A stretch of DNA of 5,522 bases from Candidatus Jordarchaeales archaeon (lineage in GTDB: Archaea > Asgardarchaeota > Jordiarchaeia > Jordiarchaeales > Freyrarchaeaceae). Numbering within the stretch: the stretch's first letter is position 1; every line of letters begins with the position of its first letter. The notes beneath the pieces are model-generated. The model saw only the letters and a list, made by a program, of their open reading frames with translations. It was not told where the DNA came from and made no database searches. The translations under genes were made by a program, and so were the position numbers. Positions 1 to 5,522 of the stretch are shown here, piece after piece. The stretch lies in the NCBI GenBank assembly GCA_038858525.1, contig JAWCFL010000061.1:1-5522 (forward strand), read 5' to 3'.

Positions 1-177
1 CTGGTTGTAGGCGAGCCTAACGAGCCTGTCCTCGGCGTGCCAGTACCCATGGATAGGTTTGGTCTATCAATGGTTGGCGGCATAACTCCGGGGGCGGCGC
101 TCAAGGAGATGGGCATAAAAATTGAAACTTTCGCTCCCCATTGTCTTCTTGAAATCAAAGAAATGAAGATGATATAA
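1..177 (+). CDS. nrpR: C-terminal end of NrpR-family nitrogen regulator (DUF128/NRD domain); partial, 5' end outside window
   Basis: Not in the ORF track. Frame +1 is open from base 1 to TAA at 175-177: LVVGEPNEPVLGVPVPMDRFGLSMVGGITPGAALKEMGIKIETFAPHCLLEIKEMKMI*. The GEPN..LG.PV.....G....GG..P.A.L.E pattern matches my recollection of the NrpR regulatory-domain C-terminus. A canonical NrpR operator at 2911-2924 supports this independently. Confidence 0.78.
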   Translation: MVVGEPNEPVLGVPVPMDRFGLSMVGGITPGAALKEMGIKIETFAPHCLLEIKEMKMI

Positions 178-307
178 TCGGGCGCCATGCTGATGAAAAA
201 GTATGCAGGGTTAAGCTTAACATGCACGCTCGACAATAGCACATAAAAGTCCGTCGTCGGGTTGGTGTACTAATAAGGTTGGGTTCGTCTCCGGGTAACG
301 CTGGTGT

Positions 308-316
308 GAGGAGGAG
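308..316 (+). promoter_or_regulatory. Shine-Dalgarno site for the ZIP transporter
   Basis: GAGGAGGAG lies 5 nt upstream of the GTG start at 322. Confidence 0.7.
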
Positions 317-321
317 TTAAG

Positions 322-1185
322 GTGTTCTTCTATCACTTGACGCTTGAAGGAGCCGCCACTAATGCCCTACTGGCGGGGGTCTTCACTTGGCTCATGACTG
401 CTCTGGGCGCGCTCGCAATTATCCCATTTAGAAGAATTTCTGAGAAGGTTTTGAGTGGCATGCTTGGGCTCGCGGCAGGAGTTATGGTTTCAGCCAGCTT
501 CTGGTCGCTACTTGCCCCGTCGGTTGATCTCTCAGCGGAGGCAGGCAACCCGTGGCTTCCAGCCGTCACGGGATTCCTCCTGGGTGGCGTACTAATAAGA
601 GCACTCGACGTGACAATACCTCACATTCACCTTGGAGTGGAGAAGGCAGAGGGGAGAAGCGTGACGTGGAGCAGAAGAATTCTGCTAGTTGCAGCAGTGA
701 CGCTCCACAACGTACCTGAGGGGCTTGCCATCGGGGTAGTCTTTGGAGCCATAACAGTCACGCTGAACGCGGCTCTCACCTACATGGCTCTAGGAGCAAT
801 AGAACTGTCCTTCGCCACTCTAAGCCACGGGGCAAGTTTCGCATCAGCCGCTGCCCTCACGCTCGGCATAGGGCTCCAAAACCTACCTGAGGGCTTCGCC
901 ATATCCATGCCTCTGCGCGCTGAGGGATTCACGACTGTGCGAAGCATCTTCTACGGTCAGCTCTCCGCAGTAGTCGAACCCATCTTCGCAGTTATAGGAG
1001 CGGCAACAGTGCTCCTCGTATCCTCACTACTACCCTACGTGATGTCTCTCGCAGCTGGGGCTATGATATTCGTCTCGGTAGAAGAGCTAATACCAGAGTC
1101 GCAGAAAAACCCTGACCTAGCGACTGCAAGCTTCATGATAGGCTTCGCAGCAATGATGCTTCTCGACGTCGCATTCACCATTTAA
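322..1185 (+). CDS. ZIP-family (ZupT/GufA-like) divalent metal transporter
   Basis: 287 aa, multi-pass hydrophobic protein. It has TM4 HNVPEG and TM5 QNLPEG metal-site motifs, a His-containing loop (IPHIH) and the C-terminal AAGAMIFVSVEELIPESQ signature. GTG start with a strong RBS. Confidence 0.93.
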   Translation: MFFYHLTLEGAATNALLAGVFTWLMTALGALAIIPFRRISEKVLSGMLGLAAGVMVSASFWSLLAPSVDLSAEAGNPWLPAVTGFLLGGVLIRALDVTIPHIHLGVEKAEGRSVTWSRRILLVAAVTLHNVPEGLAIGVVFGAITVTLNAALTYMALGAIELSFATLSHGASFASAAALTLGIGLQNLPEGFAISMPLRAEGFTTVRSIFYGQLSAVVEPIFAVIGAATVLLVSSLLPYVMSLAAGAMIFVSVEELIPESQKNPDLATASFMIGFAAMMLLDVAFTI

Positions 1186-1240
1186 CCAAAAATCTATTGA
1201 TGAAGTAGAAAAATTAAGAAAGGAGGCTAAAAAGGGGGAC
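1186..1240 (-). terminator. Pyrimidine/T-rich tract downstream of the glutamate synthase-like gene (probable archaeal terminator, convergent gene junction)
   Basis: After the stop, the minus strand reads ...CCCCCTTTTTAGCCTCCTTTCTTAATTTTTCTAC...; oligo-T tracts are typical archaeal terminators. Confidence 0.4.
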
Positions 1241-1250
1241 CGTTCGCAGT

Positions 1251-2840
1251 TTAAACTCCGTCCAGTATTCTTTCCGCTTCTTCCCTGTATGCTTCCATTA
1301 CGTATGGTATTCCTGAAATTTTCGCCGCCTCCTCCGTTAGAGCTATGAGGTCCTTGCGTGAGACCGTTGAGAGCTTGAAGTTTCTGCTTCCAGCCATCAG
1401 TTGCTGGAGTCCAATCTTGAATTTCTGGCAGAAAGTGTAGACTCCTATGGCTCCCAGCGGCATCTTTTTCACTTCCTCTCCATACTTGGACCTCAGTTCC
1501 TCATAAGTGATGAAGATCTCCTCAACAGTGCTTCCGTACTTGGCGACGTTCTTTGGCAGGTCGCCCTCCTCAATCCACTTCCCTATGTTCTTGCCCACCA
1601 TGCCCGGTATCATTAGGGCTCTACCCATGCACACCGCCTTCACGTAGGGTGCGCCCATGGCTATCGCCTTGAAAACCCCATCCTCCGTTGAGAAGCCCCC
1701 AGCCATGGCTATGTCGGGAACCCTGAAGCCCTTCTCCTCAAGCCTCCTGCAGAACTGATACGTCAGCGCTTCAAGGTAGAACGTCGGGATGCCCCACTCG
1801 TTCATCATAGGCCACGGGCTCATGCCAGTCCCACCCGGAGCCCCGTCCACCGTTATAAGGTCAAGCTTCGCCTCAGCACCGTACCTTAAAGCCATGGCCA
1901 AGTCAACAGTAGAGTATGCTCCCGTCTTCAGCGTCACCCTCTTAAACCCAAGGTCTCTCAGTCTGTCAACCTCCTCCAAGAAAGACTCCCTACTTACGAA
2001 GCCCAGCCTCGAGTGCCTCTCAAACTCCTTTATTTCACCCTCTCTGAAAGCCTCTTGCACAGCCGGGTTCTCAGGGTCAGGTAAGACAATGTAGCCTCGC
2101 CTTTTGAGTTCAAGCGCTCTCTCCAGCGAGTTGACCTTTATCTCGCCGCCAATGCTCTTAGCTCCCTGCCCCCACTTGATCTCTATGGCTTCAAGCTCAT
2201 GCTTGCTGGAAACATACTCGGCCACTCCGAGCCTCGTGTCCTCAACGTTCAGCTGCACGCGCAGCTCCCCGTAACCCTCATAATACCTCTTGTAGACTTC
2301 TATCCTCCTGTCCATGTCCGGTGACTTCTTAACTTTCCCCCTAGCGTCCAGCTCGAGCTCCGGGTCAACTCCGCAAACGTTCTCGCCGCAAACAATGGAT
2401 ATCCCGGAGATCGCTGCTCCAACAGCGAAGTGCTCCCAGTTCCTGCGCGCTATCTCGGTGGAGCCGAGAGCCCCCATGAATATGGGAAGAAGCATCTTAA
2501 TCTTGCTATTCCACCCATACTCGGTGGTTACGTCAACGTTGGTGAATATCGCCTCGTCGGGTCCAACGTCTCCGTTTAGCCCCTTAGCCCCCCAACAGTA
2601 GCCCTGAATGTTGATGTGAGAGTAATCTACAGGGTACTCCTTGCGGCCGCCAGCAGTTATCTCGCCGTATGGTTGAGGGTAAAGCATCTCCCTTCCTCTG
2701 AAGGAAGCCATCCAAATGTCGCATCCACCTCTGCACCCGTCAATGCACCTCGAACATATGCCGGACATCGGGACGACGTCTCTTGAGCGGTTAAGTGTTC
2801 CTAGCGCTTCATCAGCGTTGGGACGCCTTAAGTTTACCAT
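1251..2840 (-). CDS. Stand-alone FMN-binding glutamate synthase family protein (GltB FMN-domain-like)
   Basis: GltB FMN-barrel motifs are present: IEIKWGQGAK, ITVDGAPGGTGMSP, AGGFSTEDGVFKAIAMGA and VCMGRALM. There is an N-terminal CxxCxxxCxxxC motif and no glutamine amidotransferase domain. The ORF track starts at 2858, but the SD-like GGAAGTGG precedes the tandem ATGs at 2843/2840, so one of those is the more likely start. Confidence 0.92.
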   Translation of the reverse strand: MVNLRRPNADEALGTLNRSRDVVPMSGICSRCIDGCRGGCDIWMASFRGREMLYPQPYGEITAGGRKEYPVDYSHINIQGYCWGAKGLNGDVGPDEAIFTNVDVTTEYGWNSKIKMLLPIFMGALGSTEIARRNWEHFAVGAAISGISIVCGENVCGVDPELELDARGKVKKSPDMDRRIEVYKRYYEGYGELRVQLNVEDTRLGVAEYVSSKHELEAIEIKWGQGAKSIGGEIKVNSLERALELKRRGYIVLPDPENPAVQEAFREGEIKEFERHSRLGFVSRESFLEEVDRLRDLGFKRVTLKTGAYSTVDLAMALRYGAEAKLDLITVDGAPGGTGMSPWPMMNEWGIPTFYLEALTYQFCRRLEEKGFRVPDIAMAGGFSTEDGVFKAIAMGAPYVKAVCMGRALMIPGMVGKNIGKWIEEGDLPKNVAKYGSTVEEIFITYEELRSKYGEEVKKMPLGAIGVYTFCQKFKIGLQQLMAGSRNFKLSTVSRKDLIALTEEAAKISGIPYVMEAYREEAERILDGV

Positions 2841-2896
2841 CATCCCACTTCCACACATTTAATAGCATAACTTTGGTGTCCAAGAAGAAGGACATT

Positions 2897-2911
2897 TATT
2901 TAAATTTTTCG
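2897..2911 (-). promoter_or_regulatory. Archaeal BRE + TATA promoter of the glutamate synthase-like gene
   Basis: Minus strand CGAAAAA (BRE-like, 2911-2905) is immediately followed by TTTAAATA (2904-2897), about 55 nt upstream of the likely start codon. Confidence 0.72.
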
Positions 2912-2926
2912 GAAACTAGCTTCCGA
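2909..2926. promoter_or_regulatory. NrpR operator (GGAA-N6-TTCC)
   Basis: TCGGAAACTAGCTTCCGA is an 18-bp palindrome with one mismatched pair; its core GGAA-ACTAGC-TTCC is at 2911-2924. It is the only GGAA-N6-TTCC I found in the window, it overlaps the BRE, and an nrpR-like gene is nearby. Confidence 0.85.
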
Positions 2927-2999: not shown

Positions 3000-3596
3000 T
3001 CATAACCCCTCCTCCCGCGGCAACCCAAGCTCTTCCCTCATCCACGTAGCCGCCCTCCTAAGCCTGTCCTCAAGCTCCTCTGCAAGTCTCCTCGAAACAT
3101 CAAAGTGCAGCAAATCTTTAACCCTGAGCAGCTTCTCGTCGAAGTGAGCGAGGGTCTCCGTTAGACTTCTACCAGAGCGGATGCCATGCTCAAAAGCCCT
3201 CAAAACACCAACAATTCCAAGGGCATCCAGCTTATCAGCGTCACTCAGTATCTTCGCCTCGACGCTCAACGGCTCAATACGCCTCAGCTGGACATAGCTA
3301 TAACTATGATACTCCACAGCGTTAACAACTAATTCCACAAACTTCCCATCACAACCCCTTCCCCCAAGAAACCCCCTAGCTATCAGTGAGGAGTAGTAAG
3401 CGTGTGGCTCACCGAGCGGCCTACCTACATCATGAAGGTAAACTGATACCTCAAGAAGAGTTCGGTCAAATTTTTCAGCCTCAGAAGATATAACGCTCGC
3501 ATACCTCATAACTCTCTCCACATGCGGATAACCATGAGAGAAACCGCCCCCCAGAAGCTTCCTAGCAAGCTCCCTAGCCTCGCCAGCCAAGTCCAT
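3000..3596 (-). CDS. HD-domain metal-dependent phosphohydrolase
   Basis: 198 aa with the H...HD...D pattern: SHGYPHVERV, YLHDVGR, EYHS and LSDADKLDALG. GGGGG RBS-like run upstream of the ATG. Confidence 0.92.
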   Translation of the reverse strand: MDLAGEARELARKLLGGGFSHGYPHVERVMRYASVISSEAEKFDRTLLEVSVYLHDVGRPLGEPHAYYSSLIARGFLGGRGCDGKFVELVVNAVEYHSYSYVQLRRIEPLSVEAKILSDADKLDALGIVGVLRAFEHGIRSGRSLTETLAHFDEKLLRVKDLLHFDVSRRLAEELEDRLRRAATWMREELGLPREEGL

Positions 3597-4004: not shown

Positions 4005-4283
4005 ATGGTGATAAAAGTGGAAGTAAGAATGGATGAGCAGGGCAGAATAGTAATTCCAGCAGAAATAAGGAACTTGCTAAGGGTGAAAAGAAATTCTCGT
4101 TTCTCTATAAGAGTTGAAGGCTCCAAAATAATCCTGGAGCCCGTTTTCGACTTTGAAAGCGCTGTCGACGAGTGGGTTAGAGTCGCAACGTCCACCAAGC
4201 TAGAAGTCATGTCCGAGGAGGTAGAAAATAGCTGGAAGTGGATCGGGAAGGAGTATGCAGAACGGAAACTCGGTCTACAATGA
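4005..4283 (+). CDS. AbrB/MazE/SpoVT-family DNA-binding antitoxin (VapB-type)
   Basis: The N-terminus VRMDEQGRIVIPAEIRNLLRVKRNSRFSIRVEGSKIILEP is a classic swapped-hairpin AbrB motif. It has an acidic C-terminal half and overlaps the downstream PIN gene. Confidence 0.9.
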   Translation: MVIKVEVRMDEQGRIVIPAEIRNLLRVKRNSRFSIRVEGSKIILEPVFDFESAVDEWVRVATSTKLEVMSEEVENSWKWIGKEYAERKLGLQ

Positions 4284-4773
4284 AGGAATTGTCGACGTTG
4301 GAATTCTGGTAGTCGCCATCTTCGAGAACCCATTAAAAGAACAAGCAGTCAAGTTCCTGTCCGACGTCTTAAGGCAGAAGAAGCGAGCCGCAATACCTCT
4401 AACCACAGTTTTAGGCGCATACCACATAGCAACCAGATACCTGAAACTCAAAAGGATAAACGTTAAGCATGTGCTAGACAAGCTGTTAACAACAAGGTCA
4501 CCAGCCCTCTACCCAAACATAACTCCCGAGTTGGCAAGCAGAGCTCTAGACCTAGCCACCTACTACAACATCGAGTCATGGGACGGATACATCGTCGCCC
4601 TAGCAAAAAACATCGGAAACTCCATAATTTACAGCCTCGACAAGGAACTCGAAAAAACAAGAGAAGTCACAGTGATAAACCCATTCCCAGAACACCTCAC
4701 AAAGCAATACCACAACTTCGTCAAGAAACTCTTGAAAAACCAAAACGAAACAAATAACCATCACAGTCAGTGA
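4255..4773 (+). CDS. PIN-domain protein (VapC-like toxin)
   Basis: PIN-like layout: IVD14VG, W-D110-GYIVALA and IYSLD129KE131. It is paired with the upstream AbrB gene. The start position is uncertain (see findings). Confidence 0.85.
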   Translation: MQNGNSVYNEGIVDVGILVVAIFENPLKEQAVKFLSDVLRQKKRAAIPLTTVLGAYHIATRYLKLKRINVKHVLDKLLTTRSPALYPNITPELASRALDLATYYNIESWDGYIVALAKNIGNSIIYSLDKELEKTREVTVINPFPEHLTKQYHNFVKKLLKNQNETNNHHSQ

Positions 4774-4774
4774 A

Positions 4775-4802
4775 CAAAAAACAAAAAACAAAAAACAAAA
4801 AA
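4775..4802. repeat. Perfect heptanucleotide tandem repeat (CAAAAAA)x4
   Basis: Four exact copies at 4775, 4782, 4789 and 4796, just after the PIN stop codon; TGAAC occurs at both ends (4771 and 4803). Confidence 0.9.
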
Positions 4803-4918
4803 TGAACCACAAAAATTAATCAATAAATGCAAGCATACACCAACATCAAGCACCCCCACGAACAAGGTGATTCAAAAAGCACGCACCAACCGCTCAGCAA
4901 AGCCAACCACTAACTGCT

Positions 4919-4943
4919 AAAAGATAAAACAGAAAAAGTAAAA
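4919..4943 (-). terminator. T-rich tract downstream of the nuclease gene (probable terminator)
   Basis: Minus strand TTTTACTTTTTCTGTTTTATCTTTT begins about 10 nt after the TAA at 4956-4954. Confidence 0.5.
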
Positions 4944-4953
4944 GGCTTACTAG

Positions 4954-5522
4954 TTACCTCTGCTTCACCGGGATACGGTATGGCGCAAGCAGTTTTACTC
5001 CGTGCTCCTCAGCCACCTTATCCCCGCTCGGATGAATAACGTAACCAAACATAAAGGCGTACACCCTCATTCCCGGATGCTTCCTCTTCAAAGCCTCAAC
5101 CCTCTCAACAAAGGCATTCACGTCCCTCTCATAAATCCTAGACTTACACTCCCCAACAACAATCAAATCTTCCCCCCTACGATCACGCCCACGAGCAAAA
5201 AGATCAAACTCAACCTCCTTCCCATCAACAACGAAAAAGTACCTCTCAAACTCACCAACAAAAATACCCTCGTTAACATCAAGCCACCCTACAACCATAA
5301 TACGAGCAATATCCTCCAAACCAAAACCAACAACATCACTCAAACGACCAACCTGAGTAGCCAAACTAGACAAAGCATCCCCCATCCTGCGCTGGGCCTC
5401 AGCAAGCTGCTCCAGCCTCTCCTCAGTCCTGCGCTGGGCCTCAGCAAGCTGGTCTACTCTGGCGGCAAGCTGCTCCAGCCTCTCCTCAGTCCTGCGCTGG
5501 GCCTCAGCAAGCTGGTCTACTC
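4954..5522 (-). CDS. Coiled-coil heptad-repeat protein with C-terminal PD-(D/E)XK (restriction endonuclease-like) domain; partial, 5' end outside window
   Basis: The frame stays open upstream of the track's Met at 5385 to the window edge: VDQLAEAQRRTEERLEQLAARVDQLAEAQRRTEERLEQLAEAQRR-MGDAL... The C-terminal domain has E(FGLED)...D(VEFDLF)...E-C-K(VVGECKSRI), followed by YAFMFGY. Confidence 0.85.
   Translation of the reverse strand, partial: VDQLAEAQRRTEERLEQLAARVDQLAEAQRRTEERLEQLAEAQRRMGDALSSLATQVGRLSDVVGFGLEDIARIMVVGWLDVNEGIFVGEFERYFFVVDGKEVEFDLFARGRDRRGEDLIVVGECKSRIYERDVNAFVERVEALKRKHPGMRVYAFMFGYVIHPSGDKVAEEHGVKLLAPYRIPVKQR
5385..5522 (-). repeat. Intragenic tandem repeat encoding coiled-coil heptads (42/63-nt periods)
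   Basis: 5402-5459 is identical to 5465-5522 (58 nt, period 63). The 25-mer TCCTGCGCTGGGCCTCAGCAAGCTG occurs at 5385, 5427 and 5490. Confidence 0.95.

Follow-up and report, generated by a model that had tools for sequence, protein, structure and literature searches.

The window considered here, an entire 5,522-bp contig (G000:C61) of a 2.09 Mb, 92.7 % complete archaeal genome (G000), begins with the 3′ end of a gene for the regulator NrpR and carries, on the opposite strand, a gene of the FMN glutamate synthase family whose promoter is overlapped by an 18-bp palindrome with the NrpR operator consensus. Together they quite probably make up a local NrpR regulator-operator-target unit, with repression at the transcription factor B (TFB) recognition element (BRE) of the target promoter and relief by 2-oxoglutarate. 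The host is the Asgard archaeon Candidatus Jordarchaeum (Jordarchaeia), an uncultured hot-spring organism that is neither a methanogen nor a member of the TACK group, so that an earlier guess from the letters alone (the sequence-only reading) was right in suggesting a non-methanogen. The sequencing runs that contain window DNA are hot-spring metagenomes, the contig of genome G003 syntenic with the window (JAHLWX010000054.1) is from Candidatus Jordarchaeum sp., and the NCBI source label of the NrpR protein of genome G002 is Candidatus Jordarchaeales archaeon. A public contig of 266 kb (L065, GCA_038861695.1) matches the full window with 99.98 % identity (L065:7805-13326) and continues upstream. 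The features of the window are as follows.

1-177, plus strand: 3′ end of nrpR, 58 codons and stop (PF01995), truncated by the contig start
322-1185, plus strand: ZIP-family metal transporter gene (PF02535, E 6e-19), between nrpR and the target
1251-2843, minus strand: the target, FMN glutamate-synthase-family gene, 530 aa (PF01645)
2897-2911, minus strand: core promoter of the target as read from the letters, TATA box TTTAAATA at 2897-2904 and BRE CGAAAAA at 2905-2911
2909-2926, no strand assigned: predicted NrpR operator TCGGAAACTAGCTTCCGA, TCGGAA-N6-TTCCGA, from its letters and their conservation
3000-3596, minus strand: HD-domain phosphohydrolase gene (PF01966, E 2e-14), on the same strand as the target and upstream of it
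4005-4773, plus strand: AbrB/MazE-PIN pair, flanked by the HD and coiled-coil genes
4954-5520, minus strand: coiled-coil protein gene, running off the contig end

Regulator and predicted operator

The first 174 nt of the window match in frame +1 the NrpR regulatory domain (NRD; PF01995, E 7.7e-13) at profile positions 183-237 of 238, and the 58-residue fragment is identical to the C-terminus of a 326-aa protein, P0122. Since the window is a whole contig, nrpR is truncated by the assembly, and as no other NRD match was found in the G000 assembly, the remainder of the gene is simply unassembled. The intact gene is at L065:7001-7981 and its product, P0122, a copy from the same species, has a PF08461 winged helix followed by one PF01995 domain, which bears out the earlier assignment of positions 1-177 to the end of NrpR. 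The orthologues in G002 and G003, of 330 and 328 aa, also have both domains (for G002, PF01995 with E 8.8e-75 and PF08461 with E 2.4e-22), and the NRD of the former aligns with PDB 3NEK, the Methanocaldococcus jannaschii NrpR-like protein MJ0159 (E 6e-27). The ER.VRY.L helix of the winged helix-turn-helix (wHTH) is conserved among Asgard NrpR copies. Judged by its sequence, the Jordarchaeum regulator is of the NrpRI-type layout, a wHTH with a single NRD. Its nearest relatives, at 60-72 % identity, form a large clade in Bathyarchaeia, Methanomethylicia and Nitrososphaeria, and public annotation already labels proteins of this clade NrpR. NrpR turned up in five of 41 Asgard genomes, three of Jordarchaeum and two from another family; these five, together with G028, have the type of target gene with >70 % identity, and the remaining genomes have a type of ~50 % or none.

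On the minus strand TCGGAAACTAGCTTCCGA (2909-2926) runs directly into AAAATTTAAATAAA. The core at 2911-2924 is exactly the published NrpR consensus, GGAAN6TTCC (PMC2723118), and the palindrome is extended to 18 bp. Its promoter-proximal (right) half-site and the BRE have 3 bp in common, just as had been claimed for a palindrome on the BRE of this promoter, and the TATA box is 54 nt ahead of the target ATG at 2843. Transcription of the target is expected to start near 2872-2878. An RNA library (X14) yields contigs on the target gene body (1283-2722) and none on the promoter or the HD gene; it gives no transcription start, because contigs cannot show start, level or absence.

Five Jordarchaeum-like loci (the window, G002, G003 and two metagenome contigs) were aligned. 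The half-sites, [TA]CGG[AC]A and TTCCGA, are retained in all five, and the spacer between them varies at five of its six positions (GCTAGT, ATTGTT, ATTAAT, ATCGAT and ACTATT). The TATA box is invariant and the BRE has single changes; essentially no conservation is seen in the 30 nt upstream of the operator or anywhere past the TATA box. In a near-identical strain from hot-spring run X9, with seven differences from the window in 2.5 kb, two of the changes, at 2917 and 2918, are in the spacer centre and turn CTAG into CCGG with the dyad symmetry preserved.

A palindrome in such a position could instead be an RNA or DNA hairpin, for instance a terminator for the HD gene, or be fortuitous. On the coding strand of the HD gene it is 75-90 nt past the stop codon, and 16 of its 18 bases are self-complementary. 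Archaeal termination depends on oligo-T, however, and neither strand has a T-run after the stem, a T5 run being further upstream; in addition, two of the five copies, those with a GGCA left half, lose base-pairing and keep NrpR-like half-sites. With the conservation in five loci standing against an accident, either version of this explanation is very improbable.

The 8-base core alone is unremarkable, since its count is not raised over that of other spacings or among intergenic sites. GGAA-N6-TTCC occurs 59 times in the 2.09-Mb genome, spacings from N2 to N11 give 43-68 occurrences, there is no excess over palindromes of the same composition, and the nine intergenic cases of the 59 represent no enrichment. 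In any given 140-bp gap the core is expected 0.004 times. What does place the box above chance, and so sustains that part of the sequence-only reading, is that five related loci retain it at this promoter and that in other lineages equivalent promoters next to nrpR have it again. A genome-wide NrpR regulon was rejected, as the core is not enriched and, across five genomes, the 16-mer with a single mismatch allowed turns up less often than its reversed control. The remaining sites in G000, exact or relaxed (C8:29714, C18:24323, C20:4644, C31:3942 and C1:104580), fall within coding-like stretches or in gaps where two genes converge, and no conservation of them was found in sister genomes. The candidate CGGAATGTTTTTTCCG near glnA (C31:3943) was also discarded as a glnA operator: it occupies the gap between two converging genes, and the glnA start is 630-850 bp further downstream, the range reflecting which glnA start codon is chosen.

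Recurrence beside nrpR and the reach of the regulon

A profile search with one genome per species identified ten related loci with this type of NrpR. In each of the ten, a gene for a glutamate- or glutamine-forming enzyme is at most about 3 kb from nrpR, and in eight of them the promoter of that gene has a GGNA-N6-TNCC palindrome. In Methanomethyliaceae and two Bathyarchaeia nrpR is near a 48-49 %-identical GltS-like gene, which in the Bathyarchaeia is the first of an operon with PyrK-like and GltD-like genes, and in a third Bathyarchaeon a GltD-like gene, last in such an operon, is near nrpR with the contig ending before the remainder. In Wolframiiraptor and two Nitrososphaeria metagenome-assembled genomes gdhA is immediately downstream of nrpR, and in Hod/Wukong Asgard archaea glnA is divergent from it. 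The nrpR-gdhA gaps contain GGCA-N6-TGCC or GGCA-N6-TTCC, and the Wukong glnA-nrpR gap has a perfect TAGGAAATTTATTTCCTA beside a TATA box. In the seven loci with nrpR near a GltS-like gene, CGGNA-N6-TNCCG is present exactly once per locus, each time in the promoter of that gene, and is absent from the rest of the 164 kb; the comparison figure for G000 is 19 per 2.09 Mb. Of 13 such promoter regions, 11 contain the shorter form, GGNA-N6-TNCC, whose density there is 5.3 per kb compared with 0.21-0.27 per kb in the background. When every 4+4 palindrome of spacer length six in the same regions was listed without bias, the only recurring half-sites containing G+C were GGAA (four regions) and GGCA (two). 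Regulator, operator and target as a linked module, the core of the earlier proposal, is thus supported by comparative evidence across lineages.

Alongside one of these loci, in Methanomethyliaceae (L010:2277-5462), a 2-oxoacid:ferredoxin oxidoreductase set (ferredoxin, POR_N and TPP subunits) precedes nrpR by ~0.5 kb, a NUDIX gene intervening; the gene for the presumed 2-oxoglutarate sensor is there placed between genes for a possible 2-oxoacid-making and a possible 2-oxoglutarate-consuming enzyme.

A further explanation is that another factor binds the palindrome, or that it is an extended core-promoter element, with nrpR nearby by coincidence. The right half-site could be kept for the sake of the BRE, the genome as a whole shows no excess of GGAA-N6-TTCC, and in an Archaeoglobus genome that has NrpR the target orthologue is without the box. 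Yet the spacer varies while the left half-site, at a distance of 12-17 bp from the BRE, is kept, the same motif class is beside nrpR at unrelated promoters (gdhA and glnA) in other phyla, and an 87 %-identical orthologue in another gene context, with no HD gene upstream and no nrpR on its 6-kb contig, is without the box. On balance we regard this explanation as unlikely.

Several points nevertheless weigh against the NrpR reading, or narrow it. The relaxed motif, GGNA/TNCC, was set after the sites were seen, and the 13 promoter regions amount to ~ six independent lineages, many of the loci being related. In the Archaeoglobus genome mentioned, the target orthologue is 83 % identical and divergent from glnA, and from the lack of a box there the operator is to be seen as a lineage-specific acquisition rather than a property of the target family. 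In G000 itself the classical NrpR regulon is absent: the glnA promoter (G000:C31) and gdhA are without an operator-like site, and amtB (PF00909) and PII (PF00543) were not found in the 92.7 % complete genome, nor were nif and glnK. The predicted boxes before glnA and amtB/glnK accordingly did not materialize. With no site at glnA or gdhA and neither amtB nor PII found, the regulon looks like one promoter, and the switch like a local one. Autoregulation of nrpR was also set aside, the regions upstream of nrpR in G002, G003 and L065 being without the box.

A box before every orthologue of the target is ruled out as well. The expectation that it would precede orthologues holds for the five Jordarchaeum-like loci and fails for Archaeoglobus sp., Methanothrix, G028 and L044. 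The G012 and G023 promoters have just a CGGAA-N7-TTACG-like element, which was left out of the counts. Upstream of the Methanothrix orthologue, ~120 bp before its start codon, there is an everted palindrome, TTTTCCGA-TGG-TCGGAAAA (L041:5866-5884), in which the same half-sites have the opposite arrangement.

Two other genes of nitrogen metabolism in this genome have features of their own. The glnA gene (G000:C31:4009-6150, L008) is paired, in place of an NrpR operator, with a divergent 168-aa ORF (open reading frame) that by eye resembles an Lrp/AsnC-type regulator, an arrangement that recalls the glutamine-responsive Sa-Lrp of Sulfolobus (PMC3584215). The gdhA-like gene (G000:C15:37324-38500; L068, L069) is spread across reading frames, with a PVDILVPGARPY segment repeated around a short insert; one or more mini-introns, or frameshifts, may be the cause.

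The target enzyme and the neighboring genes

The target is a stand-alone protein of 530 aa with a putative FMN (beta/alpha)8-barrel and an N-terminal C-x2-C-x3-C-x3-C motif, its start codon having been set from homologues and from the called gene in L065. Many archaea and bacteria have relatives of 74-94 % identity, annotated as 'FMN-binding glutamate synthase family protein', and identity is 74-83 % across Archaeoglobi, Bathyarchaeia, Methanothrix, Thermotoga, Anaerolineae and others. Its assignment as a true glutamate synthase, and its substrate, are putative. The match to PF01645 (Glu_synthase; E 5.8e-17, residues 287-417) is above the cut-off and covers only 125 of 369 profile positions, no NCBIfam model matches, and no sequence match was found in the PDB. 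An AlphaFold model of the target (pLDDT 66.7, pTM 0.72) fits FMN TIM barrels best, but does so in a generic way: GltS 1OFD comes 5th, in the company of alpha-hydroxy-acid oxidases and with a TM of about 0.3-0.4, so that GltS does not stand out by fold. A glutaminase domain to accompany the stand-alone protein was not found in G000 (class II, PF00310, GATase_2), and the sole GXGXG match in the genome is weak and away from the target. Conversion of 2-oxoglutarate to glutamate by this enzyme is suggested by context, that is by glnA beside the Archaeoglobus orthologue, by the GltD-like partners of a paralogue, and by NrpR; in Bathyarchaeia that paralogue, 48 % identical, has GltD-like and PyrK-like genes in its operon.

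Of the genes on either side, that for the ZIP transporter has the same position in G002, G003 and L065 and is syntenic in the genus, with no evident link to the switch. The HD gene is also upstream of the target in G002, G003, L042, L043 and L065; it is a syntenic neighbor having its own upstream region, and its membership of the switch is not supported. Further along, the genes for the antitoxin (AbrB/MazE type, 92 aa) and the toxin (PIN domain, 172 aa) share a 29-bp overlap, and are in the same place in L065. As tblastn did not find the pair at the corresponding place in G002, it looks like an inserted toxin-antitoxin cassette. Between the PIN and coiled-coil genes an ORF-free, A/C-rich low-complexity stretch (4774-4950) has AAAAAAC-type repeats, and the end of the coiled-coil gene (5390-5522) is a tandem array of ~63-bp repeats, each coding for a unit like LAEAQRRTEERLEQL. 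Both the window and L065 end within these repeats, which are therefore the probable cause of the assembly break.

The proposed switch and its relation to known NrpR systems

The identity and domains of the regulator, the sequence and position of the operator, its conservation and the recurrence of the pairing in other lineages are established directly, and from them operator binding, the direction of repression, the response to 2-oxoglutarate and the enzyme reaction can be predicted. An NrpRI-type repressor would bind the 18-bp palindrome, TCGGAA-N6-TTCCGA, as a symmetric dimer on the promoter of the FMN glutamate-synthase-family gene, 2.7 kb from nrpR. Bound NrpR would most likely hinder the assembly of TFB and TATA-binding protein (TBP), with the target gene off; such exclusion is the most likely mode because the operator overlaps the BRE and not the transcription start. 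On a build-up of 2-oxoglutarate, whether by nitrogen shortage or carbon surplus, the NRD would bind it, affinity for DNA would fall, and the target enzyme would then be expressed, probably using 2-oxoglutarate to form glutamate. In characterized systems NrpR acts as a repressor bound to GGAAN6TTCC, from which 2-oxoglutarate releases it (PMC2723118, PMC9765008, bioRxiv 10.1101/2020.05.06.080432).

The position of the box also has to be weighed the other way, with NrpR as an activator that recruits TFB/TBP in the manner of the Ptr2-, TFB-RF1- or EarA-type archaeal activators. Archaeal activators too bind just upstream of the BRE, the site here is upstream of the BRE and TATA box and not on the transcription start, and the Wukong glnA site shares this geometry. 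Against activation, the 3-bp overlap of half-site and BRE leaves TFB no room, and all characterized NrpR proteins are repressors (PMC2723118, PMC9765008). Moreover, in the TACK relatives, the closest ones, the site is just downstream of the TATA box, between it and the start, a position that fits only repression. An activating NrpR therefore seems improbable.

Likeness to the NrpR of Methanococcus maripaludis, with its listed regulon of nif, glnA and glnK-amtB (PMC2723118), extends to the wHTH and NRD family, the identical operator consensus, a target in glutamate or glutamine metabolism, and 2-oxoglutarate as presumed signal. The M. maripaludis protein has two NRD domains, in contrast to one in Jordarchaeum; its host is a methanogen and not an Asgard archaeon; its operator is at or after the transcription start instead of overlapping the BRE; and it has an operator at glnA, whereas the Jordarchaeum genome has only one promoter-placed site and none at glnA. 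It is as a repressor that the M. maripaludis protein was reportedly described, by Lie and Leigh in 2003 and by Lie and coworkers in 2005.

The NrpRI of Methanosarcina mazei and M. acetivorans, as far as the work of Weidenbach et al. (2008) is relayed in a later preprint (bioRxiv 10.1101/2020.05.06.080432), has a wHTH and a single NRD. In that account it is like the Jordarchaeum protein in domain architecture and size class and is a repressor released by 2-oxoglutarate, as Jordarchaeum NrpR would be; it differs in having an HTH-less partner, NrpRII, where no second NRD gene was found in the Jordarchaeum assembly, and in a regulon that is global rather than apparently local. The NrpR proteins of the TACK clade are closer, with 60-72 % identity, equal length, GltS-like or gdhA neighbors and GGCA-N6-T[GTA]CC palindromes. 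In these relatives the site follows the TATA box and the usual half-site is GGCA, in contrast to the GGAA of Jordarchaeum. No publication on these TACK-clade sites was found.

A 2012 paper stated that NrpR is seemingly restricted to Euryarchaeota (PMC3584215), and a literature search found no paper joining NrpR with Asgard archaea or Bathyarchaeota, and none on this FMN subfamily. The system is not of a new kind; it is a known switch for which the lineage (Asgard) and the target class are new, with an operator overlapping the BRE and what is apparently a single-promoter regulon. The extension to a new target and lineage that the sequence-only reading had suggested stands for the Asgard host and the GltS-family promoter, and leaves aside the identity of the enzyme as a glutamate synthase. 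A wider idea, to which we attach rather little credence at present, is that the single-NRD NrpR clade may be a widespread TACK/Asgard 2-oxoglutarate switch, rather than one special to methanogens, typically guarding one adjacent glutamate-forming gene. The target, as a stand-alone FMN/Fe-S protein lacking a glutaminase partner in a genome in which neither AmtB nor PII was found, may then be an uncharacterized ammonia-dependent glutamate synthase driven by low-potential electrons and the main regulated point of nitrogen entry.

To our knowledge almost nothing is known of transcription regulation in Asgard archaea, and these hot-spring organisms are uncultured. For a test of the combination of regulator, DNA site and target, a single recombinant protein and 60 bp of DNA are enough. 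NrpR is common in Thermoproteota-type lineages and is present in at least two Asgard groups, beside glnA, gdhA or GltS-like genes, and for the widespread and highly conserved FMN 'glutamate synthase family' protein, so far uncharacterized, its link to a 2-oxoglutarate sensor provides a functional hint.

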